NCBI GenBank assembly: GCA_963977445.1
Contig: CAXBPH010000035.1
Location: 1 to 37,502 of the forward strand
Direction: 5' to 3'
From: an uncultured bacterium
GTDB lineage: Bacteria > Hydrogenedentota > Hydrogenedentia > Hydrogenedentales > JAEUWI01
Length of the DNA: 37,502 nt
The notes beneath the pieces were generated by a model. The model was not told the origin of the DNA and did no database searches. It saw only the letters and a program-made list of their open reading frames with translations. The first letter of the stretch is position 1, and every line of letters starts with the position of its first letter. The position numbers were made by a program, and so were the translations under genes. Positions 3,159-33,459 of the stretch are shown here, piece after piece.

Positions 3159-4610
3159 ATGACAAGGGGTCTACCTTTTACCTTCGGGTTTGCGATTGTA
3201 AGCATCGTTTCTTTACTCGTGCCAACCTGCGTCGACGCGACCACACTCCACATAGGAGCCTCCTCCCGGAGTATTACGCCCGACCAGCCCGTGGCCCTGG
3301 ATGGTCAGATGCGCACGCGCATTGCCCGCACGGTCGAGACGGAAGTGCAGGCCAACGCCCTGGCTATGGAATCCCGCGATGGCGATGCCGTAGTCGAGCA
3401 AGCTCTTTTCGTCGCCTGTGGTCTGGTGGCAGTAGGGGACGACATCTACCAGGGCGTGCAGGAAATCCTGACCCAGCGCATCCCGGACTTTGACGTCAGC
3501 AAACTCATCCTCAGTGCCACCCACACCCACACCGGGCCTGTCGTGCGCGACGGCATCTATGAGATTACCGATGAGGATGTGATACAGCCGAGAGACTACA
3601 AGAAGTTTCTGGTTGTACGTGTTGCCGATGCGGCCGAAGCCGCGTGGACGTCCCGGAAGGTTGCCAAAGCCGGTTGGGGCATGGCCCACGCCGTGGTTGC
3701 CTATAACCGCCGCTCCTACTTTGACGATGGCCATGCCCAGATGTATGGCGACATCAGCATCGATAGCTTTCGCGGCATCGAAGGGCCCGAAGACCACGCC
3801 ATCGAAGTGCTTTACTTCTGGGGCGAAGACGACGCCCTTATCGCGACGGCCGTGAACGTGGTGTGTCCCTCCCAGGAAGTAGAAGGCCGCAGCGCCATCA
3901 ACGCCGACTTCTGGCATCCAGTCCGCGAAGGGCTCAAGGCGAAATATGGTAAGGACCTCGTGGTACTCGGCTGGACCGGTGCGGCGGGAGACCAATCACC
4001 CCACATTCGCTATCGCAAAGCTGCCGAAGACCGCATGCGGGGATTTCGCGGCCTGGAGCGACTCGACGAGATCGCGCGCCGCATAATTGTGGCCTGGGAG
4101 GAGGCCTACGAAGGGGCCCAGCAGGACAAGCGGGACGACCTGCCCCTGGTGCACCAGATTGTGCCTATCGAGCTGCCGCGACGGATGGTGACCGAAGCCG
4201 AGTATGAAGAAAATAAGGTTGAAATCGAACGCCTCAAACAGACGCCCGGAAACTTTCGTGGTGTAGAGTGGCGAGGCGCTGTGCTCAAGCGTTACGAAGC
4301 CCAACAGGCGGGAACGGTGGAGCCCTTCATGATGGATCTCCACACCCTGCGCCTCGGCGACGTGGCCATCACGGCCAACCCCTTTGAACTCTACACCCAG
4401 TTTGGCATCCAGATGAAGGCCAAGAGCCCCGCGCTCCAGACCTTCGTCATCCAGCTTGCCGGGCCGGGCAGTTACGTGCCCACCCCCCACGCGGCAGAAG
4501 GTGGCGGCTACAGCGCCATCGCCCCGAGCAACGAAGTGGGCCACGAAGGCGGCCAGAAGTTGGTGGACGAGACGGTGAAGGCGGTGAAGGCGCTGTGGGA
4601 AGAGAAATAA
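3159..4610 (+). CDS. Secreted neutral/alkaline ceramidase-like metallo-amidohydrolase, paralog 1
   Basis: Signal peptide; SITP, SATHTHTGP metal motif, NRR, GAAGDQSP, PFELY, YVPT...GGYS motifs; RBS GGGAG upstream. Confidence 0.72.
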   Translation: MTRGLPFTFGFAIVSIVSLLVPTCVDATTLHIGASSRSITPDQPVALDGQMRTRIARTVETEVQANALAMESRDGDAVVEQALFVACGLVAVGDDIYQGVQEILTQRIPDFDVSKLILSATHTHTGPVVRDGIYEITDEDVIQPRDYKKFLVVRVADAAEAAWTSRKVAKAGWGMAHAVVAYNRRSYFDDGHAQMYGDISIDSFRGIEGPEDHAIEVLYFWGEDDALIATAVNVVCPSQEVEGRSAINADFWHPVREGLKAKYGKDLVVLGWTGAAGDQSPHIRYRKAAEDRMRGFRGLERLDEIARRIIVAWEEAYEGAQQDKRDDLPLVHQIVPIELPRRMVTEAEYEENKVEIERLKQTPGNFRGVEWRGAVLKRYEAQQAGTVEPFMMDLHTLRLGDVAITANPFELYTQFGIQMKAKSPALQTFVIQLAGPGSYVPTPHAAEGGGYSAIAPSNEVGHEGGQKLVDETVKAVKALWEEK

Positions 4611-6823: not shown

Positions 6824-7135
6824 TCGGTGGTGCGTCCGTCACCATCGTTTGGCGTCATCGAGGACGACGAAAGTCTGATGCCAACATATTCGAGCTTTGC
6901 GTAGGGGATATCATGAAATGCGCATGCGCTTAAAATCCGACAGCGAAAAAGATCTCCCGTAGATTGCCAAATCGCCCGATTCCAAGTAGACTGCCTTATG
7001 TAGCGTGTCGCTGAAGTAGGGCAGTCTCGGCGGTGCAGACAGAGTCTTGGTGCAGAAAGATTCACTGATCATCGCGATTCTCAGGGTGTGGAAGCGTTGA
7101 CGTATCGCGAAACCGTCTTCAGGGAGACAAGCGAT

Positions 7136-10100
7136 ATGTCTATCCAACGATTGCCGCGCGTTCTATGGTTTTTTTTCTTTGTGGTCCTACTGAATGGCTG
7201 TCTCGAGCCCGTTCCTGATCCCGATCCCGTTCCTGATCCCGATCCTTCGACGGACGTCGGGCCGAAGGCTTCCTTCACGGCGGACGCGACGTCGGGGCCC
7301 GCGCCGTCACTGATTTCTTTCGCCGATACCTCTGTAGCCGGTACCGCAGCCATTAGTGCCTGGGCGTGGAATTTTGGCGATGGCCTGGAGAGTACCCGAC
7401 AGAATCCAGTCCACGATTTCGGTGAGCCGGGTAGGTATACGGTTGCGTTGACGGTCACCACCTCGGTGGGGAGCAATACGTCGACCCAAAGTGACTTCAT
7501 AGAGATCGTGGCGGTGCCACCAGCCATGCCCACGGTGGTCGCGCCGGCCGGTCCGGTGACGGGCTCCAGTGTGATGCTTGCGGGGGAGACATCTCCCGGT
7601 GCCAGCCTCTTGATAACCGGGGGCGTGGAAAATGTAGCCGCTATCGCTGACGAAGAAGGTGCCTTTGGGGCCACGGTACTGATTGGGGCCAATCGAATCT
7701 CACGACTTTTTGTCACGGCATCGCTCAATGGGTTGGCTAGTCCACCGGTACCCGTGGAGATACTGCAAGACATGCAGCCGCCCACGGTCTTCATTGACTA
7801 CCCTGCGTCGGGTGAGCAACTGACGGAAGAACTGGTGACGGTGACAGGGCGGGTGGGCGACCTGTTGAGCGGTTTTACCGGGCTCCAGGTGAGTTTGGGT
7901 GGCATCGCTGGCCAGATTGCCATGGCCGTGGGCAATACGGGTACCTTCGAGGTGGCCAACGTGCCGCTGAGTCTGGGCGACAACCTCCTTGAGGTGTCCG
8001 CCATGGATGGGGCAGGTAACGCCATGACCGATACGATTACGGTGACCCGGGTGGCACCGGCAGGCGATCGTCTTCAGATAGTTTCGGGCAATGGCCAAAA
8101 GGGAATCGCCCGGATGGCCCTGCCGGAACCGCTTGCCGTCTCCCTGACCGACGAGAACGGTGTGCCGATAGTGGGGCGGGCTTTGGCCTTCGAGGTAGTC
8201 CGAAGTGATGGACGTCTCGATGGAACAGCCGACTTTATGACTCCTCGGCTTACGTTGGAAACCACCACGGACGAAGGCGGGGTGGCCCGTGCCTACTTAC
8301 GGCTGGGTGTGGACGCCGGTTGTGGGAACAACCGCGTTGTCGTTCGCGACGCGATCTCCGGCCGTCAGCTCACCTTCTGCGCCTCGGCCGAAGCGGGTAT
8401 GGCCAGCCAGCTCAATCTGGTGACGGGAAACAACCAGCGCGCCGCGGTCAAGGGGATGACGCCAGAAAAACTTCGTGTGCGGGTGAGTGATGGGGACAAC
8501 GGTGTTCCCGGCGTAATGGTCGATTTCATGGCGATGGTGGGCGGGGGGGAAGTGAACGGAGAGATCGTCGCAACGGTCGCAACGGATGCCCGGGGTATTG
8601 CTGAAGTATCCTGGGTCCTTGGTGAAGAGGGTGGCCCGAATACGGTGGTGGCCGAATGCCTGGAAAATGCAGGGGCGCCCGTTTACTTCGAAGCCCTTGC
8701 CGTTGCGTCTACCGAAGGTGTGACTACATCCCTTTCGGGTGTCGTTCTGGATAACAGCAGTCTACCCATCGGTGGCGCGCCCTGCGAACTGGAGATCAAC
8801 GGTCAGTCTTTACCCAGTGTGGTGTCGGATGGCGAGGGACGTTTTACGTTCTCCGATATTCCTGCGGGCCAGGGCCATCTCCACGTAGGGGGGCTGGTGG
8901 CTACCCAACTGAACGGGGAGAGTCTGGAGGCGGGCTCCTTCCCTGATCTTGCGGTGGCGGTGACGGTCGTGGAAAAGGCCGCCAATACACTGCCCACCCC
9001 CGTGCTGCTGCCCATGCTGGATCCGGCCAACGCCCGCACCTATGACGGCACAGCCGACGTGGAGTTGATCGTGGCGGGTATTGAAGGGCTCCGCATGATT
9101 GTCCGTGCCGGATCCATGCGTCGTGCCGACGGTAGCGTGCCCTCTCCATCCGATCCTGCCCTGCTGGCCTTGAACCAGGTGCACACCGACGATATTCCCA
9201 TGCCCTTGCCCAATGGGGTGTCGTCACCATTCGCCTGGACCCTCCAGCCTTCGGGAGCGACCTTCGATCCGCCGGTAGAGATTGTTTACCCCAACATGGC
9301 TGGCTTGCCTGCGGGCGCGGCGAGTTTCTTCCTGAGCTTTAATCACGATACCGGTGCCTTCGAAGTCGTAGGCACCGGTGCGGTTTCGTCCGATGGTTCT
9401 GAGATAGTGACCGATCGCGGCTCGGGCATCAGTGTCGCGGGATGGGGCGGCAACTGTCCACCCTATTCTGCCACGGGTGGAGCGAGCGCATGTGAGGCCA
9501 ACCTCAACGCTCTGTTGAAGGAATCGGTACGGTTTATTATCGCGGTGGGCAAAGACCTGAATAAATTTACCCAGGTGTTGAGTTGTTTTTCAGATATCGC
9601 ATTTAACGGGCCCGATTGTATTAAAGCCTATCGAACATTTCACGATGACGGTGCAAACGATGCCGTCAAAGCCGAAGCAGCGTTGAAGTGCGCCAAGGCA
9701 TTGAAAACAGTGGCCAACAATTGCGCCGATATTTTTCTGACCATCGATCCCTTCAAACTTGCCGGTCGCGCCAAGCTCCTGTCCGATGGTATCGCACGGG
9801 CCCTCGCCGCCGCCCAGGAAAATAAGTGTTTCGTCGGCTCCACCGGCCAGCGGGTGCTGAAGGGCCTGGAGGCCATCAACAACATGATTAATCCCTTCCT
9901 CGACCTGGCCAGCGATGCCTCGCCAAGAAAGCTGTTGATTACAACGGCCTGTTTCTTCATGCAGACTATCGTCGATGGGCTGGAATTTGGAAAGATACCC
10001 AACAAAGGGGGGGCGCTATACAGCGAAGAAACCTTGGCAGAGCTGGATGAAATGTTCGATGCGCTGCCCGCCATGCTTGACGAACTGGTGGCGGGAAATG

Positions 10101-13100
10101 ATGGGGTGCTCGCCCGAATAAACGATCCCGAGCTGCAAGGAGCTATTGCCGAGTCCATGGTAGAGTTGCAAGGGGCACTTGACGAGGAACTCGTAGCCAC
10201 AGAACTGGCCGGATTCACGGTTAGGCTAAGCAATCAAGTTGCGGTTGCCGACGAGTTCGGCCTGGTGAGTTTTGGAAACATCACCATTCCCGATGAGTTT
10301 GGCGCGGGCGGTCCGGGGACCCCACCAGACTTCGTTGGTGATGATATCTTGCGGGTGCTGGGTTTCAAGGAAACTGAAAGTGGCACCCGATACGTGGTGG
10401 GTCCGCCCTTTCAGATCGTGGCGGGTGTCGACTTCAACATAGAGTTTGACGACCTGACGTTTAGCGATACGGTGCCCCCATTTCCACAGACCCTGGAGCT
10501 GAATGCCGATTTCCTGGCGATACCGATGGGTGCAACAAGTCAGCTGACCCTCACCGGACGCTTTTTCAACGGTGCCCCCATTGATCTTACGGAGGCGGGC
10601 GATGGTACCACCTACCGCGTCAGTAATACGACTATTATTACCGTGAGTGCCGATGGGTTGATTGCGGGCGTGGGCACCGGGGTGGCCTATGTGACGGCCA
10701 GCAACAGCAGTGCGACCACAACACGACGGGTCACGGTGTCAGACGATTTAATCATGACAACCGTGGAGGGCCGGATTCTCGACTTCAATGGAGACCCTGT
10801 TTCGGGTGCCCAGGTCAGTACGGCCTTCGGCGGCGATTTGTTTAGCGATCTTGACGGATTCTTTAGCTTCTCCGTGATATTGCCCGGCGCAACGACAGGG
10901 CTTACCCTGATGATTAACGTCAACGGCGATAGCTTCAACTCCGGGGTGCTCAGCGTGGTCAGCGGAGGTACGACCACTGGGGGGGATATCCTCTTCGTTC
11001 CCTCGGATGCAGCAACGACGATCGTGGGGCGCGTGGAGCGCAGTAACGGCAGCCCCGTCGTGGGGGCCACGGTGAATACGGAGCAAGGGGGTGAAGGCAC
11101 GACCGATAGCTTGGGCGCCTTTTCATTCGAGGTGACCCTTCTTGATTTTATGTCGATTACAGCGTTTGCAAACTTCAGCAGTGAAACGGAAAGTCTCATG
11201 GGCGCGTCGGCTCCGGCCGTACCGGTCATAGAAGGTATCACGAACGTCGGTACCATCGAAGTCAATGAGCCGGCCCAGGTGTTCTACCCCCGACAGCGCA
11301 TCTTGACCCAGACGACACCCACGGATTTGGGCATTGCCGATTTTAACGGCGACTCCATTCCAGATGTCGTCGTGGTCAGTCCCGTGCACGATAGTATCGG
11401 GCTGGCCCTCGGACGCGGGGATGGAAGTTTTCACGGGCGGACGGACACGCTGATTGGCACCGATCCCAACTTTGGCATAGGAATCAACCCCGAAGCATTG
11501 GCTACGGGCGATTTTAACAAAGACGGTGCTATGGATGTCGCCACGGCAAATGCTTTTGTCCGTAGCCTTTCGGTGGTGCTGGGGAATGGTAACGGCACCT
11601 TTGTCGCGCCCACCCAGTTCGATACGGGGCTGGCACCAAAGGATATCATTAGCGCCGATCTGGACGGGGACGGAAACCTCGATCTCGCCACGGCGAACGG
11701 CAGCGAAGACACCATATCCGTCCTTTTGGGGAATGGCGATGGCACCTTCGATGACCAAGTGGTGTACGCGGTAAATGATTTTCCCGTGTTTCTGCGCGTG
11801 GCAGATTTCAACGGCGACGAGGTGCCTGATCTGGCCTCAGCAAACGATGGTCAGTTCTCCGCCTCCGTTTCCATCTTGCTGGGTGTTGGCGATGGAACCT
11901 TTGAGCCCCAGCGTTCTTTTGAGACCGGCATCGATACGGTTTCTCTCGCCACCGGCGATTTTGATGACGATGGGAACGTGGATATAGCGGTGAACCGTGC
12001 CGCCCTCTCTGGTCATCTCCTTACCATTTTCCAGGGCAACGGGGATGGCACGTTTATGATGACATCGGAGGTGCCCGTACTCTTGGTCGGTGGCATTGAG
12101 TCCGTCGATCTCGATGAGGATGGTGATCTGGATCTTCTCGTCTCCTTTTCTGGTCAACAATTCGGCGTGCAGATTTTGGTCGGAAACGGTGACGGCACCT
12201 TCGCCCTCGGGAGTCAGTTGGATGGGGGACAGTTTCCCCGGCGGGTGCTCGCCGCAGATCTGAATGACGATGGCAGTCTGGACGTGGCCCAGGTAAATCG
12301 GCAGAGCGACGATGTGTCCGTCTATCTCGCTGCGGCCGATGGCGTGTTTGATGACCTGCGATTCGGTGCCGGAACCGCGCCACTGCTTGTTGAGTTGACC
12401 CACGTGAATAGTGACGACAACATCGACGCGGTTGTCCTGAATAATGACAATACCAGCTCGCCTGTTTATTCCGTGTCCGTACTCGCCGGCAATGGCGATG
12501 GTACCTTCGCGGAAAGTGTGGAGACACCGTTAATGAGCACGCCAAATGCCATGGTGACCGGTGATCTCAATGGTGACGGAAATAGTGATGTTGTGGTATC
12601 CCGCTGTTGCGATGGTATGACGGACATCTTGTTGAGTGATGGCTCCGGTGCTTTCCAATCGGTGACTACCATCACGGTTGGTGACGGACTTTCCAATTTC
12701 GCCTTGGGCGATGTCGATGGCGATGGAAACCTGGACCTCGCACGGATTCAGGTTTTTGGCCAGTCGGAGGAGTTCGCCATACTGCTGGGCAAGGGAGACG
12801 GTACCTTCGAAACACCCCTAGCTTTTGCAGGGGGTGCGAGCCCCTACGCGGTTTCCCTGGTCGACATGAATAGCGACGAGCAATTGGATGTGGTCATCGC
12901 GCAGTTTACGGGGATTACGGTGGCCTTGGGCAGTGGTGACGGAACTTTCGCCACGCCTGCCATGAGAGCCGGTCTGAGCAATCCCACGGGCCTGGCCGTA
13001 GGCGACCTCAATGCCGATGGGGCACCCGATGTCGTTGTGGTCGAGATCAGCAACTCCGACCTGGTGGTTGCCTTGGGGAATGGTGATGGCACCCTGGCGG

Positions 13101-13378
13101 CATTCGTGCCTCAGGACGTCCGCCTCAATCCGGGTGCCGTCTCCCTGTCTGACATAAGCGGGGATGGCGTGCTGGATGCCCTCGTGGCGAATGAGCAGGC
13201 GAATACGATAGAAGTACATATCGGCCTTGGCGATGGTACGTTTGCCAGAGTCGATAGCTACGGTATCGGTCAGGCGCCCGTCGACATCGATGTGGTGGAT
13301 CTCAATGGAGACGATCTTCCCGATGTGGTGAGTGCCAACGAACGACAACGGGGTATCGGCGTCTTACTCCACAAGTAA
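7136..13378 (+). CDS. Giant surface lipoprotein: PKD + Ig-like repeats + Cys-rich helical domain + carboxypeptidase-regulatory-like domains + 14 FG-GAP/VCBS repeats
   Basis: ATG 7136 after AGGGAG (ORF track starts at 7088); lipobox LLNGC; PKD WAWNFGDG; Ig-like segments (VSGNGQ, TDEGGVA); 14 DxNxDGxxD-type repeats from ~11320 to the end. Confidence 0.85.
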   Translation: MSIQRLPRVLWFFFFVVLLNGCLEPVPDPDPVPDPDPSTDVGPKASFTADATSGPAPSLISFADTSVAGTAAISAWAWNFGDGLESTRQNPVHDFGEPGRYTVALTVTTSVGSNTSTQSDFIEIVAVPPAMPTVVAPAGPVTGSSVMLAGETSPGASLLITGGVENVAAIADEEGAFGATVLIGANRISRLFVTASLNGLASPPVPVEILQDMQPPTVFIDYPASGEQLTEELVTVTGRVGDLLSGFTGLQVSLGGIAGQIAMAVGNTGTFEVANVPLSLGDNLLEVSAMDGAGNAMTDTITVTRVAPAGDRLQIVSGNGQKGIARMALPEPLAVSLTDENGVPIVGRALAFEVVRSDGRLDGTADFMTPRLTLETTTDEGGVARAYLRLGVDAGCGNNRVVVRDAISGRQLTFCASAEAGMASQLNLVTGNNQRAAVKGMTPEKLRVRVSDGDNGVPGVMVDFMAMVGGGEVNGEIVATVATDARGIAEVSWVLGEEGGPNTVVAECLENAGAPVYFEALAVASTEGVTTSLSGVVLDNSSLPIGGAPCELEINGQSLPSVVSDGEGRFTFSDIPAGQGHLHVGGLVATQLNGESLEAGSFPDLAVAVTVVEKAANTLPTPVLLPMLDPANARTYDGTADVELIVAGIEGLRMIVRAGSMRRADGSVPSPSDPALLALNQVHTDDIPMPLPNGVSSPFAWTLQPSGATFDPPVEIVYPNMAGLPAGAASFFLSFNHDTGAFEVVGTGAVSSDGSEIVTDRGSGISVAGWGGNCPPYSATGGASACEANLNALLKESVRFIIAVGKDLNKFTQVLSCFSDIAFNGPDCIKAYRTFHDDGANDAVKAEAALKCAKALKTVANNCADIFLTIDPFKLAGRAKLLSDGIARALAAAQENKCFVGSTGQRVLKGLEAINNMINPFLDLASDASPRKLLITTACFFMQTIVDGLEFGKIPNKGGALYSEETLAELDEMFDALPAMLDELVAGNDGVLARINDPELQGAIAESMVELQGALDEELVATELAGFTVRLSNQVAVADEFGLVSFGNITIPDEFGAGGPGTPPDFVGDDILRVLGFKETESGTRYVVGPPFQIVAGVDFNIEFDDLTFSDTVPPFPQTLELNADFLAIPMGATSQLTLTGRFFNGAPIDLTEAGDGTTYRVSNTTIITVSADGLIAGVGTGVAYVTASNSSATTTRRVTVSDDLIMTTVEGRILDFNGDPVSGAQVSTAFGGDLFSDLDGFFSFSVILPGATTGLTLMINVNGDSFNSGVLSVVSGGTTTGGDILFVPSDAATTIVGRVERSNGSPVVGATVNTEQGGEGTTDSLGAFSFEVTLLDFMSITAFANFSSETESLMGASAPAVPVIEGITNVGTIEVNEPAQVFYPRQRILTQTTPTDLGIADFNGDSIPDVVVVSPVHDSIGLALGRGDGSFHGRTDTLIGTDPNFGIGINPEALATGDFNKDGAMDVATANAFVRSLSVVLGNGNGTFVAPTQFDTGLAPKDIISADLDGDGNLDLATANGSEDTISVLLGNGDGTFDDQVVYAVNDFPVFLRVADFNGDEVPDLASANDGQFSASVSILLGVGDGTFEPQRSFETGIDTVSLATGDFDDDGNVDIAVNRAALSGHLLTIFQGNGDGTFMMTSEVPVLLVGGIESVDLDEDGDLDLLVSFSGQQFGVQILVGNGDGTFALGSQLDGGQFPRRVLAADLNDDGSLDVAQVNRQSDDVSVYLAAADGVFDDLRFGAGTAPLLVELTHVNSDDNIDAVVLNNDNTSSPVYSVSVLAGNGDGTFAESVETPLMSTPNAMVTGDLNGDGNSDVVVSRCCDGMTDILLSDGSGAFQSVTTITVGDGLSNFALGDVDGDGNLDLARIQVFGQSEEFAILLGKGDGTFETPLAFAGGASPYAVSLVDMNSDEQLDVVIAQFTGITVALGSGDGTFATPAMRAGLSNPTGLAVGDLNADGAPDVVVVEISNSDLVVALGNGDGTLAAFVPQDVRLNPGAVSLSDISGDGVLDALVANEQANTIEVHIGLGDGTFARVDSYGIGQAPVDIDVVDLNGDDLPDVVSANERQRGIGVLLHK
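7208..7243 (+). repeat. 18-bp tandem repeat x2 encoding the PVPDPD linker
   Basis: CCCGTTCCTGATCCCGAT repeated exactly twice. Confidence 0.9.
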
Positions 13379-21148: not shown

Positions 21149-21180
21149 CGACCCGATCGACGTCATAGTCGATCGGGTCG
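21149..21180. terminator. Perfect 13-bp hairpin downstream of the minus-strand gene ending at 21211
   Basis: CGACCCGATCGAC-GTCATA-GTCGATCGGGTCG. Confidence 0.65.
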
Positions 21181-21210: not shown

Positions 21211-22527
21211 CTATGCGATGTAATTCAAGAGTGCGTCGGCCGCCTTGCCACGACTTCCATCGCTGCGGAGAAACGAGGCAATCTGGGTGATGCGGTTGCC
21301 ACCGGCCGCCCGCTCGTCGACGTCGCGATAGCCCAGATCGATCTCCTCAATGCCCACATCGGTCAGGCGGAGCAATTCACCCGCTTCGGTGATGCCGTTG
21401 CCGTTGTCCAGGAAGACGCGGAGGGATTCGAAGATGGCGTCATCGCGATTAATCACGCCGTCGCCGTTGTCATCAAAGGTGCGTAATTCTTCAAAGCCAT
21501 TGCGGGCACCATGCTGTTCCCCGAAGAGTTCCAGACCACTGTTGATGAGGCCATCCCCATTCCGATCCAGGGCGAGGAAGGCATCGCCGCCCTGAACAAA
21601 GGCCACCTGTTGGGCACGGCCACTGCCGGTGAGATCAAATTGGGCACCCCGCTGGTAGCTGCTCAGCTCGATGCCATCACTGTCGAGGTCGAGGACAATA
21701 GGGTCACCTTGTTGGACGACGCCCTGGGTCGTGGTAACGCTCGCGCTGAACGAAAAGGAGAATTCGAGTTGAATTCCAGCGGCCTGCAATGCCTGTTTGG
21801 CATCACCCGCGCCACTACTTCCCCCAAGACCCAGCGCGGGCAGCAGGTCGCCCGCCAGGGTGTCATAGACACCGGAAATGAACTCGTTGAAGGCCTCGTC
21901 CAGATGTGCGGCATTAAACTCGCCATCACCCCCACCAATCAGGGAGAAGAAGTCGCTTAACAGTTCATCGGTCTGCCCCAGCAGCTTGTCGGTAATTTTG
22001 AGCAGCGTATCGAGCAATTCATTCGACTGAGCGGCTCCATCTGCTGTATTCGCGAAACCATCCAATGCGGCACCGGATATGGAAATAGAAAGGGAAAAAC
22101 GCGTGGATATTTCTTGCCGCGCACCGTAAAAGGAGGCCTGCTGGTTCCCGTTGAGCTTCTCCGCCGTGGCATCGGTGCGCCGAGTGAAGAGGGCCAACTC
22201 TTCATAGCGCGATTCCTGGAAGAAATCAAAGCTTAACTGCGTGGCTTCCACGCCCGGACTGCTGCCACCCTGGCCCAAGGAGGCGCTCAAGGTGGATAGT
22301 TGAAAAGACAGGGCTTGTCGCGTTTCCAGGGAGCGGTACACGGCACCTTCAGACGCTTCCGTTTGGGCCAGTGACGTATTGGGATGGACAAGGGCGGCAG
22401 CATCCTGTTGCGGGTCAGGAGATTGCGTGAGGAGCGCCCGGGCCGCACCACCCCCTGGACGGTCGAAATTGGACCGGGTGGCGGGAGATAAGAGGCCCGT
22501 CAATGAAGTTATGGCAGGTGTACCCAT
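21211..22527 (-). CDS. Protein with C-terminal FrpC-like Ca2+-dependent self-processing module (Asp-Pro autocleavage)
   Basis: ATG 22527 after GGAGGAG (438 aa; ORF track starts at 22623); GD|PIVLDLDSDGIEL, DAFLALDRNGDGLINSGLELFG, NGFEELRTFDDNGDGVIN, LRVFLDNGNG..GEL..L..GI..IDL. Confidence 0.75.
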   Translation of the reverse strand: MGTPAITSLTGLLSPATRSNFDRPGGGAARALLTQSPDPQQDAAALVHPNTSLAQTEASEGAVYRSLETRQALSFQLSTLSASLGQGGSSPGVEATQLSFDFFQESRYEELALFTRRTDATAEKLNGNQQASFYGARQEISTRFSLSISISGAALDGFANTADGAAQSNELLDTLLKITDKLLGQTDELLSDFFSLIGGGDGEFNAAHLDEAFNEFISGVYDTLAGDLLPALGLGGSSGAGDAKQALQAAGIQLEFSFSFSASVTTTQGVVQQGDPIVLDLDSDGIELSSYQRGAQFDLTGSGRAQQVAFVQGGDAFLALDRNGDGLINSGLELFGEQHGARNGFEELRTFDDNGDGVINRDDAIFESLRVFLDNGNGITEAGELLRLTDVGIEEIDLGYRDVDERAAGGNRITQIASFLRSDGSRGKAADALLNYIA

Positions 22528-22580
22528 GGTATTTACACTCCTCCAACGTAGGGAGTTATCAGTAATCCGTCGCACAATCC

Positions 22581-22607
22581 TTATCGGCAAACCCATGGCT
22601 AGCTTGA
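22581..22607 (-). promoter_or_regulatory. Sigma28 (FliA/SigD)-type promoter
   Basis: Minus strand TCAA-N15-GCCGATAA; exact -10 consensus, 53 nt upstream of ATG 22527. Confidence 0.75.
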
Positions 22608-22699: not shown

Positions 22700-23797
22700 G
22701 TGACCATCCTTACCCGTTACACCCTGAAGCAAATCTGGATTCCTGCAACTATTGCAGCGATTGTGATCAGTTTTGTCGTGATGCTGGGAAGCATCGGCCA
22801 GGAGTTGGGCACTCTCATGAAGGAATTACCCATCGCCCATATCACGGTGATGGACATTTCCCTGATTTCGATCTATACCCTGCCCACCCTGGCAGAATTT
22901 GTCTTTCCCATTACCTTTCTTCTTGGCATCATGCTGACCTTCGGGCGCATGGCTCAATTCAGCGAATTGACGGCGGCCAAGGCGGCCGGCATTCCCTTGC
23001 GCCGTATGGTGCTGCCCGTCGTGGTTGCTGGTGCCGGGGTCAGTGTGGCGTGTTTCGTGGTTATGGATCGAGTGGAACCCCTTGCGTACAAACGTCTTGT
23101 GACACTTCTGGGGAGTGATATGCCCCACCGCATTACTTTCGACGTGTTTCCCACCGGGGTCATGCATGAATTCGGCGATTGGCGGGTATACATCGAGCGG
23201 CGGGAAAAGGATCGCTCCCTCCACGATATTATTGTGTTGACCCGCGATGGCGACGAGGTGACGGCCTATTATGCGGAAACGGCCCGTCAATTCACGGAGC
23301 AGGGCGTTCCCCGCATTGAAATGGAGAATGTCCAGATAGTGGGGCCAGGTTGGACCAATTATACTGAGCGAATTACCAAGACGCTGCCCACTTTGGATTC
23401 CATCGCTTTCGAAGGAGAGCGGGAAGGAATGCCCCTCACCACGTTGCTTCGTGAAGAGAAAAAGACCCGCGTGGCCTACGCGGAGTCTGGCAATTTCAAC
23501 TCCCTGAAATCCTTGGTAGCTATCCGGCGTGAAATCGGCGATCGATTGTCCTTCCCACTGATGTGCCTCGCTGTCAGCATCGTGGCGGCTCCGGTAGGTG
23601 CCCGGGCAAAGCGCTCGGGGCGCTCCTATACTTTCGCCAGTGGGTTGGCCATCGTGGCCGCCTATTTTATTTTGCGTTCATCCATGCGCTACATCGTGCC
23701 ACCTACCTTGGGGAGCGCTATTTTTATAACCCAATTCCCCAATCTTGTGCTGGTCGTGGTGGGACTCATCCTCATATGGCGGGTTGACCGCGTATGA
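22700..23797 (+). CDS. lptF: LPS export ABC permease, LptF/LptG family (first gene)
   Basis: ILTRY start, FGRMAQFSELTAAKAAGIPL, 3+3 TM layout with a periplasmic beta domain; GTG 22700 preferred; ATGA overlap with the next gene. The F/G assignment is by gene order. Confidence 0.85.
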   Translation: MTILTRYTLKQIWIPATIAAIVISFVVMLGSIGQELGTLMKELPIAHITVMDISLISIYTLPTLAEFVFPITFLLGIMLTFGRMAQFSELTAAKAAGIPLRRMVLPVVVAGAGVSVACFVVMDRVEPLAYKRLVTLLGSDMPHRITFDVFPTGVMHEFGDWRVYIERREKDRSLHDIIVLTRDGDEVTAYYAETARQFTEQGVPRIEMENVQIVGPGWTNYTERITKTLPTLDSIAFEGEREGMPLTTLLREEKKTRVAYAESGNFNSLKSLVAIRREIGDRLSFPLMCLAVSIVAAPVGARAKRSGRSYTFASGLAIVAAYFILRSSMRYIVPPTLGSAIFITQFPNLVLVVVGLILIWRVDRV

Positions 23798-24930
23798 CCA
23801 TCATCGATCGATATATTGGCACGCGTATTCTGGCGACACTGCTGAAGATTGTCCTGGCGTTGATGTTGCTCTACGTGGTGGTCGATCTCATCACAACACG
23901 CCAGCGGGTCATCGACAAATACGATGTGCCGTGGTTTGCGGTGTTTCAGTACTACGTGAGTCATGTGCCCATCTACTTACTTAAGTTTCAGGCCCTGGGC
24001 CTTGCGTTGCTCATCGCGACCCTGTTTGTGTTGGGCCGCGCGGCTCAAGATTCCGAGATCACGGCCTTACTGGCCGGTGGGGTCAGTATGGTACGTATTG
24101 CCCGCACGCCTGTCCTCATTGGCCTGATGCTGACTATCGGCGTATTCATTTTCGAGAATACGGGTGGGGTCTGGAGTGCCCAATTGGCCAACCGCCTGGA
24201 CGAAGAGTATTTCAGCCGGGCAAAACCGTCGGAAAGTCAGGGCCATAGTTGGACACGACTGGGCCCCGATAAATGGACCTGTCATATCCTACGCTTCAAT
24301 CGCGAGGCCCTCACCGGAACAGACGTATTTATTCACGCTTTCGGCCCGGCCGGCATGCAGGAAATTCGTGCACGGAGGATCTATTGGGAGCCGGATACCG
24401 CGCAGTGGATGTTGGAAGACGGGCGTTGGGCTATTATTCGTCGGATACCTGGTGAAAACGTTGCGGGGGGTGATTCCCAGATAGCGGCCCCGCTCCAAAG
24501 CGTAAAAGACGAGCGCCGTATCACGCAGATAGCAGCGCCCTTCAGCGAGACGCCAGCCATGCTCTTTGCCCTGGACGATCCACCGGAAAACAAATCCGTC
24601 TCCGTACTCTACCAGGATATTCAACGTGCCGATGCCATGGGCCAACCGACGGGACGGGCCCGCGTGGCGTTTCATACAAAGTTTTCTCGGCCCGCCCTTT
24701 GTTTTATAATCGTCTGGCTGGCCATCCCCTTTGCGCTTCGCATGCGTCGCGGGGGCATATTTTTGAGCTTTGGTGTAAGTATCGCTCTGGGGCTCGCCTA
24801 TGTTACGCTATACGCCATCGCCACGGGACTGGGAAACATTAATCTGGTGCCCCCGGTGGTGGCCGCGTGGTTCGCCAATAGCCTGTTTATGGCGGGCGGA
24901 CTGATCTTTTTTGGGCGAATGCGCACGTAA
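23794..24930 (+). CDS. lptG: LPS export ABC permease, LptF/LptG family (second gene)
   Basis: IIDRYI start, SEITALLAGGVS, AIPFA, PPVVAAWFAN; translationally coupled to the previous gene. Confidence 0.87.
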   Translation: MTIIDRYIGTRILATLLKIVLALMLLYVVVDLITTRQRVIDKYDVPWFAVFQYYVSHVPIYLLKFQALGLALLIATLFVLGRAAQDSEITALLAGGVSMVRIARTPVLIGLMLTIGVFIFENTGGVWSAQLANRLDEEYFSRAKPSESQGHSWTRLGPDKWTCHILRFNREALTGTDVFIHAFGPAGMQEIRARRIYWEPDTAQWMLEDGRWAIIRRIPGENVAGGDSQIAAPLQSVKDERRITQIAAPFSETPAMLFALDDPPENKSVSVLYQDIQRADAMGQPTGRARVAFHTKFSRPALCFIIVWLAIPFALRMRRGGIFLSFGVSIALGLAYVTLYAIATGLGNINLVPPVVAAWFANSLFMAGGLIFFGRMRT

Positions 24931-28714: not shown

Positions 28715-28872
28715 CGGGCGACTAACCACCAGTAACCGACACGAAATGCCACCCCGACCGATGTCTTCAGCGTTTGTCGTCAAGAATTATTCCAAATTAT
28801 CTGGTACACTATGGGAAGTCAGGGGTGGGTTGGCGGAAGGGGATCCGCGTATGGGTCAGAAAAGGAAGATTC

Positions 28873-31800
28873 GTGAAAAAAAGCGACAGTAATTTGCATG
28901 GTGTGACAGTCTTGGGTGCGTTGGTAATCATAATGGCGGCTGCCGTTTCCTTTGCGGAGGTCCCCATAGCGCCAAAACTCAGTGGATTGAAACATGCACC
29001 GAAAGTGGTGCCCCTGGCCACAAAGCAGGTTGATGACCCCGAACGCCTGCGCCATGAAATATGGGGACAGTCCAGTTACGGTGACGGGTATGTATACGGA
29101 CCTAAAAATCGCCGTTCCGGGATGACTGTGGTCGACATCGACCTTGATGGGGACAACGATTTTGTATTCCCCAGCTCCATTACCAGCCCCCAGCTCATGC
29201 GGAATCTCGGCTCGAGCAGCGCCTTCTACCCCGGCGGATCCGTAGCGCTGGACATGGATCCCCTGCCACAAGATACCCGCTGGGACCTGAACATGGATTT
29301 CGCGGATATTACGGGCGACGGTCTGCCTGACATGATTGCGGTGGTGAATTATCAGGTGCCCGGAGATGGGAGCACCTTTACCAAACGGGTCGTCTATTAC
29401 AAAAACGAGGGCCCCCTGTCGAACCCCAAATTTACGTATCAGGGCAGTATATTCACCAGTGCCCAGGACGCCTTTGAACAAAGCGGTATGTGGATAGCCT
29501 TTGGTGACATTAACGGGGACGGGCTGCAGGATATTTTTATTGCGGAAGCCTGGATTTTCGAGACCGAGCAGAATCATCGGGTATATCAGATTCTCAATGC
29601 GGGCACGTCAACCGAACCGTTATTTCCCTTCTTTCTTGAGTTGACTGATCTCAATAACGTACTTCCTGATCGCATTTCCTTTGATGTAAAAACAAAGAAC
29701 GGCAAAGACCTGAAAGAGAATTCGTCCGACCCCGGGAAGAGCAGCGCGGCGAAGGGTACGAGTTATTCCTATAACCTGGGTGATATTGCCCTCTACGACT
29801 GGGACTTTGACGGCCTTCTGGACTTCATGTTTTATGATCGGACCAACGGCCTGACCCTGGTCCGCAATGTGGGAACGCCTACCGCCGCGGTATGGAACGA
29901 TAGGATTGGTACCGACATTGTCACCTACATTTACGATCATAACGCCCTCGACGACGTGAACTACGCCGAAGGCACCTTTGCGGTTCGGGAAAATCCCGAT
30001 TCTGCCCTGCCAGGCGTCGATTGGCTGCGGGATATTTATGTTTCGGTGAATTCCCGTCTCAAAAACTACCGGTTCTTTACCGGCGAAGGAGACAACGGGG
30101 CCTATCGTATCAATCAACAGAATGCCGTGGCCTTTGATGCCCAACAAGGGGACGTGGCATTTTGGGACGCCGATGGAGATGGTGATCAGGATATGTTTCG
30201 GATGGCGAACAATAGTAGTTCGGAAACCAGCCTGGTCATGTTCCGGAACGAGGGCGCACCCTACGCGCCGGCCTGGGCCGAGTATGATTCCAATTTGGTA
30301 TTCACCAATGTCATGTTGAATTCCGGAAGCGTAGACAACGACTTCCGCAACGAATTGTTTATGTTTGCAGACCACGACGGTGATGGGTCGGCCTCTCTCT
30401 TTGTGCAGGGGCTGGACGGACAAATAGCCCAGTATGGCGCTACCCAGGGCAGCACGACGGGTGCCCCCCGTTTCACGCTGTTTACCGGAAACTTCGGCAG
30501 CACCGTATCATCCAGCCACGTCAATCCCCGTGCCCGTGGGTTTACGATGGCGGATTTCGACCTGTACGACGGCGACGACTTTTCAGAAATCATCACGGTG
30601 TACACCTATGCCGGGGACACGGCGCTTCGGGTCTATGACATATCCGGCAATATCCTCTACGATCTCAACGATGGTAGTTTGCCTGCCAACTTCCTCCCCG
30701 ATCCCTACGACAATGGCTCCCCCATCAACCCACTCTATCTGGAAGCCATGACGGCGGGTGATTTAGATCTAGATGGCCGTCCCGACCTCATCGTCGCCTG
30801 GACAGAAGACCAAAACTTCGACAACACGGAGCTTCACTACTATCTCAACGTGGAGGTCACCGATCACAATAACTACACCATCCCGGCCTTCCGTTTTACC
30901 TATGGTGGCAGGCTGGCTGAGGTACAGAAAACAGATGCCCATTTTGGACGGATGCCCAAGATGGTGGATATCGACTCCGATGGTGACAAAGACGTGTTTG
31001 TCGGGCACCGCTATCCCGATACCAGTGGGACGAACCTGTTTTCGTACCTCCGTTTCTATCGCAACATTATTGATTCCGGTATCGATATCTATCGCCAACG
31101 TCTGGTGACAGATCAGGCCATCAATCTCAGTATCAGTGACGATCCCCACAGTTACTTCTCTATTCTCAATAACAGTGGCGGTACGCTGGAAACTTCAACC
31201 CAATATCGCACCGGGAGCACGGCTCCGGCCATCGACGTGCTCCAGAGCATCGGCTTGGAACGCAACGCCCGTGTCTTCCTGGACGTACTGCCGACCGTAG
31301 GACCCAATGATTCAAAAGCGATTATTGTGGTGGGCGATACCATGGATGACGCTCTCTATTCCACCTTTGCGACCCTGGCTGATTTTGCTTATTTTGTGTT
31401 GGAGTCGGAAGGTCTGCCTCGGGAAAATATTCGATTCTATGCCGACGACAGCTCCCAGCTTGATGGCGACGTGGCCGGCAAACCCACCCTGGCATCGCTG
31501 GAAGAATCGATCACAAATTGGGCCCAGGGTTCGGAAAAACTCCTCGTATATCTTATCGATCACGGGCAGCGGGATCGCTTTCGTATGAACGCGACCGAAT
31601 ATCTGGAAGCCGATGCTCTCGACGCCTGGTATGACACCTTGCAGGATGTGCCTCTGGCAGATCGCACCATGATAACCACGGTTATCGATACCTGCGAGGC
31701 GGGCAGCTTTGTCAATAACCTCCAGCTGAGCAAATCTCAGAAAGCAGAGCAAGATAAGGGTGCGTCCGGTCCCCAGCGCATAACGATGACCAGTTCAGGA

Positions 31801-33459
31801 CAGGGTCCCGTCGAGGGCGTGGCACTGTTTGACCAGGCCCAGTACATCAGTTTCTCCCTGAATTTCTGGTTTAATATCTTCAACGGCAGAGACTATGGTC
31901 AGGCCTTTGACGATGCCAAGATTTCCATAGAAGCGATTAACCCCCTTCAGGTGCCGCAGATTGATAGCGATGGAAACGGTATCGCCAATCAAGGGGGGGA
32001 CAGCGCCCTCGCCACAGGCCATCGTCCGGGTGCCAACTTTGACATTCAGGTGCCGGGTGTCTTTATTGGAAACATCGCCGACGATCAGGCGATCTCCACC
32101 AATGCGGCGACTCTCTCCATGGGTGGAATCGTGTCGCCCTTCCCGGTAGAAGGCGCGGGTGCACTGATTGTTCCGCCCAACTTCCAACGACCCTCCCTGG
32201 GCAACGACGATGAACAGCCCATTTCCGGTCTCGATTTCATCGATTTTGAATTCGACAACGCCTCCCAGACGTGGTCGGGTACCTACGATGGATTCACAGA
32301 AGGCGGCCTCTATCAGGTCCAATACTTTGTACGTGCGGGCGGTCAATTTCACGCGTCTCCCCGTATCGGCTTCGTGGACCGGATTGAAACGCCCGATGCG
32401 TGGGAACTGGATGACTCCTCGGAGTCGGCCAACTGGATTCCCATCAACTCGGTGCAGGGCCATAACTTCCATGACACCGACGATGCCGACTGGGTGCGCT
32501 TTTCGCCCTTACCCGGTCAGGTTGCCACCATTGGTGTCATTAATCCCGGCCAGAACAATCGGGCCGTGGTTGAGCTGTTCCTGGCGTCAGACATCCTCGC
32601 TGCGGGTACCGATGCGGTAGATCCAATCCGCGTTGAGACCAGCGAGGACTACGGTTCGGATCTGGTATTCGAGCAAAACTTCGACACGTCCGAGCAGTAT
32701 TTTCTTCGGGTTTCCAATGCCGATGGCGACATTCAAGGTGCCGGTACGTCCTACCTGCTGCTCGTCGCGGTCGGTACAGGCGGTACCAGTCTGATTCCCA
32801 CAACCTTGATCGTCACGGTGATGGATTCCAATGGGAATACACCCATTGAAGGTGCCGATGTGACCTTCGATGGCCGCAACGTTGGCAAATCCTCGCGGGA
32901 TGGTCTCTGCCACATGTCCGTGAGCGCCTATTCGACCTATCAGATTCAGGCGGCCAAGTCAGGATTTACGGCTACGTCGCAGAGTGTGAGGGTCAACAAT
33001 ATCATCGAAGAGGCCGTCATCATGATGGCCGCTGTTGGCGGCGAAGGTGAAGGTGAAGGCGAAACGCCTCTGTCTGAAATTGCTCTGGGCCTCATCAATA
33101 ATTTCGCCACGGCGGATACGAACGACGACAATCTGCTCTCTCTGGCAGAAGCTACGGGCGCATCGGGCAGTTTGACGGTGAGCCAGTTCAATCAGATGGA
33201 TACAAACAACGATAACTTCCTGAGTCAGGCAGAACTGTCCGCGCAGGTTGGCGGTGGTGAAGGCGAGGGCGAGGGTGAAGGAGAAGGAGAAGGAGAAGGT
33301 GAAGGTGAAGGTGAAGGTCCGGTCATAATGGTATGTGCGGGCGGAAAGACGGCGCTGACGAGTAGTGTCGGCGGCGATTTACTCATTGTGTTGCTCTGCC
33401 TGGGCGGACTCCTGTGGAGCACCGGCGCGGTGCGCGTAGGTCGTGGGGGCACGTGTTGA
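28873..33459 (+). CDS. Secreted FG-GAP-repeat protein with C13/caspase-like cysteine peptidase domain, EF-hand pair, poly-GE linkers and C-terminal membrane anchor
   Basis: GTG 28873 after AAGGAAG, signal peptide ending VSFA; multiple DxDGDGxxD repeats; clan CD dyad VYLIDHG / IDTCEAGSF; DTNDDNLLSLAE and DTNNDNFLSQAE EF-hands; terminal hydrophobic helix followed by Arg residues. Confidence 0.8.
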   Translation: MKKSDSNLHGVTVLGALVIIMAAAVSFAEVPIAPKLSGLKHAPKVVPLATKQVDDPERLRHEIWGQSSYGDGYVYGPKNRRSGMTVVDIDLDGDNDFVFPSSITSPQLMRNLGSSSAFYPGGSVALDMDPLPQDTRWDLNMDFADITGDGLPDMIAVVNYQVPGDGSTFTKRVVYYKNEGPLSNPKFTYQGSIFTSAQDAFEQSGMWIAFGDINGDGLQDIFIAEAWIFETEQNHRVYQILNAGTSTEPLFPFFLELTDLNNVLPDRISFDVKTKNGKDLKENSSDPGKSSAAKGTSYSYNLGDIALYDWDFDGLLDFMFYDRTNGLTLVRNVGTPTAAVWNDRIGTDIVTYIYDHNALDDVNYAEGTFAVRENPDSALPGVDWLRDIYVSVNSRLKNYRFFTGEGDNGAYRINQQNAVAFDAQQGDVAFWDADGDGDQDMFRMANNSSSETSLVMFRNEGAPYAPAWAEYDSNLVFTNVMLNSGSVDNDFRNELFMFADHDGDGSASLFVQGLDGQIAQYGATQGSTTGAPRFTLFTGNFGSTVSSSHVNPRARGFTMADFDLYDGDDFSEIITVYTYAGDTALRVYDISGNILYDLNDGSLPANFLPDPYDNGSPINPLYLEAMTAGDLDLDGRPDLIVAWTEDQNFDNTELHYYLNVEVTDHNNYTIPAFRFTYGGRLAEVQKTDAHFGRMPKMVDIDSDGDKDVFVGHRYPDTSGTNLFSYLRFYRNIIDSGIDIYRQRLVTDQAINLSISDDPHSYFSILNNSGGTLETSTQYRTGSTAPAIDVLQSIGLERNARVFLDVLPTVGPNDSKAIIVVGDTMDDALYSTFATLADFAYFVLESEGLPRENIRFYADDSSQLDGDVAGKPTLASLEESITNWAQGSEKLLVYLIDHGQRDRFRMNATEYLEADALDAWYDTLQDVPLADRTMITTVIDTCEAGSFVNNLQLSKSQKAEQDKGASGPQRITMTSSGQGPVEGVALFDQAQYISFSLNFWFNIFNGRDYGQAFDDAKISIEAINPLQVPQIDSDGNGIANQGGDSALATGHRPGANFDIQVPGVFIGNIADDQAISTNAATLSMGGIVSPFPVEGAGALIVPPNFQRPSLGNDDEQPISGLDFIDFEFDNASQTWSGTYDGFTEGGLYQVQYFVRAGGQFHASPRIGFVDRIETPDAWELDDSSESANWIPINSVQGHNFHDTDDADWVRFSPLPGQVATIGVINPGQNNRAVVELFLASDILAAGTDAVDPIRVETSEDYGSDLVFEQNFDTSEQYFLRVSNADGDIQGAGTSYLLLVAVGTGGTSLIPTTLIVTVMDSNGNTPIEGADVTFDGRNVGKSSRDGLCHMSVSAYSTYQIQAAKSGFTATSQSVRVNNIIEEAVIMMAAVGGEGEGEGETPLSEIALGLINNFATADTNDDNLLSLAEATGASGSLTVSQFNQMDTNNDNFLSQAELSAQVGGGEGEGEGEGEGEGEGEGEGEGPVIMVCAGGKTALTSSVGGDLLIVLLCLGGLLWSTGAVRVGRGGTC
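33256..33318 (+). repeat. Hexamer GGNGAR repeat encoding (GE)10-G linker
   Basis: Ten GGN-GAR units with mixed synonymous codons; a shorter (GE)4 lies near 33040-33063. Confidence 0.9.

Follow-up and report, generated by a model that had tools for sequence, protein, structure and literature searches.

A stand-alone protein with a FrpC-type self-processing module and a sigma28-type promoter motif in a flagellated member of the Hydrogenedentota

The locus and its C-terminal module

The window analysed here is the whole 37,502-nucleotide stretch of contig CAXBPH010000035.1 (assembly GCA_963977445.1) from an uncultured bacterium of the phylum Hydrogenedentota. On its minus strand it carries a monocistronic gene for a 438-aa protein, P0001, whose C-terminal part is, by sequence and predicted fold, a self-processing module (SPM) like the one found in the Neisseria meningitidis protein FrpC. 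A preliminary description of the same DNA had proposed the open reading frame (ORF), its module and its expression signals, and all were recovered: a minus-strand frame of 438 aa with D275-P276 at codons 21705-21700 and the quoted motif series, a promoter made of TCAAG at 22607-22603, 14 nt and GCCGATAA at 22588-22581 (equal to TCAA-N15-GCCGATAA), and the ribosome-binding site GGAGGAG at 22544-22538. Model confidence in the list below is given as the predicted local distance difference test (pLDDT) of two AlphaFold models of P0001, built from 70 and 136 sequences.

21211..22527, minus strand: monocistronic gene of the stand-alone SPM protein P0001, 438 aa, ATG at 22527 and stop at 21211; more than 100 relatives share its N-domain, at about 400-475 aa
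22538..22544, minus strand: ribosome-binding site GGAGGAG, 10 nt 5' of the ATG; the closest relatives align from the same Met
22581..22607, minus strand: sigma28 (FliA)-type promoter motif TCAAG-N14-GCCGATAA, recognised by sequence and found also before fliC and flgM of the host
22249..22527, minus strand: residues 1-93, poorly conserved and likely disordered N-terminus (pLDDT 32-62, hydrophobicity scan), candidate type III export segment
21835..22248, minus strand: residues 94-231, conserved helical N-domain (pLDDT 74-94 at 101-180; best confidence 101-190)
21700..21705, minus strand: D275-P276, predicted scissile bond (FrpC D414-P415), with Gly274 before it; Asp and Pro conserved in aligned relatives
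21214..21702, minus strand: residues 276-438, FrpC-type SPM (Pfam PF26745; phmmer, Foldseek, VIA-align), ending at the last strand of the protein
21149..21180, no strand assigned: 13-bp hairpin 30 nt 3' of the stop, without a strong U tract; likely terminator, possibly common to the convergent gene

Residues 276-434 of P0001 aligned with the FrpC SPM (6SJW) at a phmmer E-value of 2.8e-27, the next unrelated match lying at E 0.048. The block of the module had a pLDDT of mostly 90-98 in the two models, and 6SJW/6SJX were the sole significant Foldseek matches (E about 4e-14, template modelling score (TM) 0.76 on the target). VIA-align superposed the model on 6SJW with a Z of 22.2 and a root-mean-square deviation of 1.7 A over 153 residues, the next chain reaching Z 8.1, and the proposed FrpC homology and fold are supported. 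The similarity in sequence and fold to FrpC residues 415-591 places the module in PF26745, the SPM family of the newer Pfam (precomputed annotation). With the SPMs of FrpC and FrpA of N. meningitidis and of ApxIVA of Actinobacillus it shares the fold, about 40% identity and an Asp-Pro at the module's N-terminus.

Residues of FrpC discussed in PMC7078468 were mapped by hand through the phmmer alignment, and their conservation was read from alignments of 70 and 78 sequences. The scissile Asp is kept in 70/70 and 77/78 aligned relatives and the Pro in 69/70 and 78/78, and the codons of both vary synonymously among relatives. Equivalents of FrpC D414/P415, D419, G424, D456, D462, E474, G477, D499, D510, E532 and D579 are invariant or nearly so, as are D280, D315, D321, E333, G336, D352, D363, E384 and D431 in the numbering of P0001; D431, the counterpart of D579, is present in all 70 sequences. 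The predicted ligands of four EF-hand-like Ca2+ sites (D419-G424 with D456; D462-E474; D499-D511; D521-E532) are conserved, and, like the FrpC SPM, P0001 keeps the narrow-port residues L475, G477, G491 and L582. In FrpC, according to PMC7078468, D478 and D579 make up a fifth Ca2+ site that twists the scissile bond, and the SPM is unfolded at cytosolic Ca2+, folding only above about 100 uM, with a Ca2+ affinity of about 150 uM.

P0001 differs from FrpC in its architecture, its SPM being C-terminal and alone in 438 aa, whereas that of FrpC is internal to an RTX protein of more than 1000 aa. It is without RTX repeats, a type I tail or an FrpD-like partner gene; its gene has a sigma28 motif whereas FrpC is under iron regulation; it has Phe/Phe for W451/W519, Gly for Tyr at position -1 and a third loop one residue shorter; and its host, unlike those of FrpC and ApxIVA, belongs to an environmental candidate phylum. 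Membership of the SPM-bearing RTX/type I exoproteins (FrpC/ApxIVA) was rejected, the protein having no repeats and no tail and being too small.

The protein matched 205 others; among the 120 matches listed about 105 share the N-domain, and the named ones are from Ca. Hydrogenedentota. A scan of species genomes gave 410 matches, and the locus counts rest on the best 80 of the 410. Every one of the 80 frames stops 161-170 codons beyond the point where the SPM match begins (in one case at a contig edge), so there is no tail after the SPM in this family, in line with the earlier statement that the module ends the protein without a type I tail. RTX nonapeptide repeats are absent from three sets of the stand-alone class (0/77, 0/27 and 0/34) and from P0001, which is also devoid of Cys and of hydrophobic N-terminal or transmembrane stretches by a hydropathy heuristic, with no dedicated signal-peptide predictor run; to that extent the proposed lack of a signal peptide, transmembrane helix and RTX repeats holds.

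In the two models the variable N-terminal 90 or so residues are of low confidence and residues 101-190 form a moderately confident helical domain. A VIA fold search with the N-domain, compared within the whole-protein model rather than folded alone, returned generic helical bundles only (Z up to 8.1), Pfam gave only EF-hand, dockerin-like and scattered weak matches, and the Atlas held no usable feature match. Weak likeness of the N-domain was found in the Atlas to a cluster with CiaI in 10% of its members (TM <0.5) and to DUF5610 proteins (PF18433; TM 0.41-0.49, predicted structures); of the 32 Pfam families matched by 70 members 25 were listed, and DUF5610 was not one of these. A DUF5610 gene of the host itself (contig C83, L211:1480-2010, minus strand) likewise has a sigma28-type motif, with one mismatch, and a FlgM-like N-terminal motif, and DUF5610 may on these sequence features be another late flagellar export substrate; no publication was found under that term. 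A second SPM-like protein of the host (contig C172:8171-9475, plus strand) has a signal-peptide-like start and Thr-Pro in place of Asp-Pro, and is likely a non-cleaving paralog type.

The SPM gene lies between a divergent lptF/lptG pair (window 22700-24930, plus strand) and a convergent gene for a LamG-domain protein. The lptF/lptG pair is adjacent or near in 20/81 relative loci and is the commonest neighbour, which we read as synteny; no conserved operon or partner gene of the SPM family was found among the 81 neighbourhoods. Elsewhere in the window, both on the plus strand, are a 2096-aa protein with FG-GAP repeats, PKD and Ig-like domains (7088-13378) and, after a MoxR-type AAA gene, a 1561-aa FG-GAP-repeat protein with a weak peptidase C13 match (28774-33459).

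Probable sigma28 control and co-occurrence with flagella

The host genome carries fliA, flhA, flgM, four flagellins and two further flagellin-domain genes, as the preliminary description would require, and TAAAG-N14/15-GCCGATA precedes a host flagellin, flgM and a fliD-like gene (read as fliD from its sequence). Comparable E. coli FliA sites are listed in Table 2 of PMC4183435. Because about 0.4 sites matching T[AC]AAG-N14-GCCGATAA are expected per genome by chance, the single site upstream of P0001 is only suggestive; it is its conservation in relatives that makes the motif non-random. Loci were scored for T[AC]AAG-N13-15-GCCGATA within 200 nt upstream, a pattern that includes the TCAAG variant of P0001 itself and was fixed after the relative loci, several of them close kin, had been inspected. 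In 77 of the 80 loci (three had no usable start) the motif was exact in 51 and within one mismatch in 67, one of the misses being mis-started and really having an exact site, against 1/352 other ORFs of the same loci. Between relatives the motif persisted despite differences in spacer, start distance and gene neighbourhood, and the promoter scan found no sigma70-type site upstream of the SPM gene. A chance promoter was rejected on these counts and on those of the distant stand-alone class given below (15/31 vs 2/120 and 0/33). Most homologs bear the promoter motif that had been predicted for them, and we regard control of the SPM gene by FliA/sigma28 as very likely. None of the computational outcomes named beforehand as refuting the proposal was observed.

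Several further motifs were observed. The sole match among the control ORFs came from locus L049, where another exact sigma28 motif (near 3929, plus strand) lies about 1 kb upstream of the ortholog. Host contig C6 has three exact motifs within about 500 nt (43010, 43304 and 43523, plus strand; L212) that no convincing ORF follows; a fourth lies at 44931 (plus strand), about 490 nt before a flagellin gene. This group next to the flagellin cluster possibly marks small RNAs transcribed with sigma28, or a long leader. Another exact motif (C9:28089, minus strand) stands before a gene for an 1816-aa protein with a signal-peptide-like start and surface-protein-type repeats, possibly a FliA-controlled, Sec-exported surface protein. 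Exact motifs were also seen before uncharacterised ORFs of 271 aa (C20:778, plus strand), 140 aa (C110:15528, minus strand) and 97 aa (C365:5339, plus strand), the last being FlgM-like by eye with no PF04316 match.

Across 135 genomes of the phylum, 77 matched the family profile, and after three were dropped (two paralog-type matches and one 71-codon fragment) 74 carriers remained. The gene fliA was found in 101/135 genomes and flhA in 105/135; at least one of the two is present in 73 of the 74 carriers, and the exception, a genome 60% complete, has a flagellin-domain gene. There were 74 flagellated carriers and no unflagellated ones, 35 flagellated genomes without the gene and 26 that had neither flagellar marker nor gene, so that the co-occurrence with flagellar genes that had been predicted was found (74/74 carriers flagellated, 0/26 unflagellated genomes with the gene). 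The nominal p of 3e-11 for this association is too favourable, since a single family accounts for 21 of the 26 unflagellated genomes. Two contrasts are informative: in family f3 only two of 23 genomes are flagellated and these are the only two carriers, and in genus g27 the same eight of ten genomes have flagella and the gene, the other two (96% and 94% complete) being without both. The locus set contributed another 22 carrier genomes, with fliA present in 21 and a flagellin-domain gene in the one left.

Predicted export, possible acceptor and the wider stand-alone class

The low pLDDT of residues 1-100 and the absence of a Sec-type signal or transmembrane stretch match the features of a type III export substrate, as judged by models and heuristics. 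A FlgM-like motif (D-x-hydrophobic-x-hydrophobic-S), which opens the Pfam FlgM match and served as a marker rather than an established signal, was present in the N-termini of 15/77, 11/27 and 11/34 members of the three class sets vs 50/3322 proteins of the crude host proteome, and it may play a part in export. CiaI and FspA of Campylobacter are under sigma28 control. Like CiaI, FlaC and FspA, P0001 is without a Sec signal, has a likely disordered N-terminus, appears co-regulated with late flagellar genes and seems accessory to motility; those three are non-flagellar proteins exported via the flagellar system of Campylobacter (PMC5223770). Unlike them P0001 has a self-processing module, none being described for them in the part of PMC5223770 at hand, and no sequence relation to them was shown. 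Export of P0001 by the flagellar apparatus is likely. An SPM that folds only with Ca2+ would suit a protein crossing a channel for unfolded proteins, since it would be armed only outside.

As to the acceptor of a putative cross-link, the preliminary description had included the filament. This part of the proposal was weakened, and flagellin as the main acceptor is disfavoured, because the four host flagellins have only 1-3 Lys per chain, near the termini or at one mid-chain position, which makes the filament a poor acceptor. The acceptor is probably not bulk flagellin; it may instead be the FliD-like cap (the FliD-like protein of the host has 12 Lys), a protein of the envelope or matrix, another cell or a further copy of P0001.

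SPM-like domains are common, with 22,056 representatives at E 0.001, many of them repeated two to four times within giant RTX proteins. In such proteins of 1000-7700 aa (P0121-P0259) the two to four domains lie near the C-terminus and the Asp is kept in 21/232 copies; the Asp-less copies are apparently a non-cleaving, undescribed use of the fold. SPM matches, mostly in long ORFs, turned up in 59 of 301 genomes sampled from the phylum to which an alphaproteobacterial carrier belongs, and the five further stand-alone cases inspected there all had fliA. In these and 80 metagenome loci, 40 of 120 SPM ORFs were stand-alone, a frequency that is biased because the metagenome loci were fetched with a stand-alone alignment. 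After removal of five duplicates or repeats and four Hydrogenedentota-type members, 31 distant stand-alones remained. A sigma28 matrix score of at least 12 was reached by 15 of them, 16 lying below the cut-off, vs 2/120 neighbouring ORFs and 0/33 other SPM ORFs, and those with the motif have N-domains unrelated to that of P0001. Of 95 ORFs neighbouring the distant members 59 were scanned against NCBIfam at E 1e-12, and none of the 59 was assigned to a flagellar family.

Asp-Pro was retained in 47/50 stand-alone representatives vs 21/232 copies in other architectures, a ranking that favours multi-copy giants, and in the loci in 38/40 stand-alone vs 48/80 other SPM ORFs; the Asp is hence dispensable for the SPM fold and yet retained in the stand-alone class. 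The D478 equivalent is Asp in 40/52 stand-alone vs 11/69 other SPMs. In an SPM-only tree of 121 rows the stand-alone and other forms were split by two changes (39 when shuffled), and the stand-alone SPMs may represent a deep lineage of the family, separate from those embedded in RTX proteins; as the tree is unrooted, no order of origin is claimed. Plasmid searches gave no full-length stand-alone match, the three records inspected being SPMs in longer, tailed proteins. One carrier, P0260, is cultured and assigned by NCBI to Undibacterium. In a literature search whose coverage largely excluded subscription journals, no stand-alone or flagellum-linked SPM was described, and P0001 would by prediction be an undescribed flagellum-coupled variant of clip-and-link chemistry.

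The proposed mechanism and its rivals

We propose that FliA would switch the P0001 gene on after hook completion, and that the protein, unfolded at cytosolic Ca2+, would pass the flagellar channel led by its N-terminus. Extracellular Ca2+ would then fold the SPM, which would strain and then slowly cut D275-P276, and the anhydride left on the N-domain would react with an amine on a partner docked by that domain, which would be the targeting part. The small residue at -1 (Gly, Ser or Ala) and the Phe/Phe pair may make the reaction slower than in FrpC, possibly delaying it until docking. Cleavage at D275-P276 is fairly probable, and productive linkage, given cleavage, would be about equally so. 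The chain as a whole, from late FliA expression through flagellar export, Ca2+ folding and slow cleavage to covalent linkage of the N-domain, is a tentative proposal to which we give slightly less than even chances.

A number of observations weigh against this proposal. With regard to flagella, the clustering of the unflagellated genomes leaves only about two or three independent contrasts, and 35 of 109 flagellated genomes, among them 13 of the 14 members of family f7, which has no carriers, are without the gene, making it an accessory one. Sigma28 regulons include cytoplasmic proteins too. P0001 itself has no FlgM-like motif, and no Lys of the N-domain is conserved, the best position reaching 25/70. 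As regards cleavage, the module is only about 40% identical to the FrpC SPM, and the SPMs tested as active, in the portion of PMC12538545 available, are at least 60% identical to FrpC or are that of ApxIVA. The third Ca2+ loop has 11 residues vs 12 in FrpC, and the D478 equivalent is E337 (Asp in 66/78 relatives). The T-shaped pair W451/W519 is replaced by F310/F372, W451 lining the port around the scissile bond in FrpC (PMC7078468), and in the class as a whole Trp is found at W451 in 10/52 stand-alone vs 69/69 other SPMs and at W519 in 12/52 vs 68/69. Gly274 precedes the scissile Asp (the -1 residue in the family is Ser in 44, Ala in 14 and Gly in 13 of 78), and FrpC SPMs with Gly, Asp or Pro at -1 showed minimal cleavage in 60 min (PMC7846742). 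The earlier caveat on activity was right in that two Trp of FrpC are Phe here; it overlooked the Gly at -1 and the class-wide loss of the Trp pair.

These residues bear on the idea that the SPM does not cut at all and that a flagellum-exported protein carries it purely as a Ca2+-folding domain (as folding switch, as calcium sensor or as a ratchet in export), much as giant adhesins carry copies devoid of the Asp. The loss of the Trp pair, the small -1 residues including Gly and the shortened third loop fit it, and most SPM copies in large proteins are Asp-less, so that the fold has non-cleaving uses. In those copies, however, the Asp is lost, whereas the stand-alone class keeps Asp-Pro (47/50) together with the bond-twisting D478/D579 pair, and we consider a non-cleaving module unlikely. 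Selection on Asp-Pro is equally in keeping with cleavage of any outcome, including one in which the flagellum-exported product of a sigma28 gene is cut by Ca2+ merely to release or mature the N-domain or the SPM, while the anhydride hydrolyses or cyclises. No conserved acceptor Lys, no partner gene in 81 neighbourhoods and Lys-poor flagellins speak for such clipping without linking, and hydrolysis and self-cyclisation are the default fates absent a docked target (PMC7846742). On the other side, in 50/77 relatives the 25 residues ahead of the scissile Asp contain no Lys, so that the anhydride would be left to react with an amine from outside; the point carries little weight, given that Lys is scarce throughout the N-parts (2.4%). 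We see clipping without linking as rather unlikely, if marginally less so than a module that does not cleave.

The remaining alternatives concern the route and the association with flagella itself. A sigma28-regulated P0001 could stay in the cell, or leave it through lysis or a type I-like ABC exporter. The host does have an HlyB-like gene (548 bits) and a partial HlyD-like one (106 bits), both below curated cut-offs, and they speak for this reading, as does the missing FlgM-like motif. The HlyD family TIGR01843 had no match at E 1e-45 in the 135 genomes, a weak negative with 12 candidates scored per genome and the control found in 1/14; yet RTX repeats are missing from the protein, which ends with the SPM, and the module needs Ca2+ above cytosolic levels, and this reading appears improbable. 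That motif and co-occurrence are incidental, a product of chance plus shared ancestry in a gene unrelated to flagella, draws on the non-independence of kin and on the one family that holds most unflagellated genomes. It fails to account for a motif that persists despite varying spacers, start distances and neighbours and that recurs in distant stand-alones with unrelated N-domains and not in other SPM genes, nor for the two nearly complete genomes of one genus that are without both flagella and gene, and we give it hardly any credence.

Returning to covalent linkage after flagellar export, the stand-alone SPM proteins could form an old class of "covalent glue" proteins that is spread over many bacterial phyla and exported by the flagellum, in which Ca2+ outside the cell would arm the SPM to weld a fast-evolving N-domain to surfaces, matrix or other cells at the time of flagellum completion, so that motility would be tied to an attachment that cannot be undone, a view we hold slightly more doubtfully than the mechanism for P0001. 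If active, such a protein would be a genetically encoded electrophile delivered by the flagellum and a new coupling of motility to covalent attachment. Naturally occurring modules of about 163 aa that are Trp-free and have Gly or Ser at -1 would put the twisted-amide mechanism directly to the test and could supply NeissLock-type protein ligation with slower or differently tuned parts. Stand-alone SPMs in environmental bacteria would also give clip-and-link chemistry a testable role outside pathogens.

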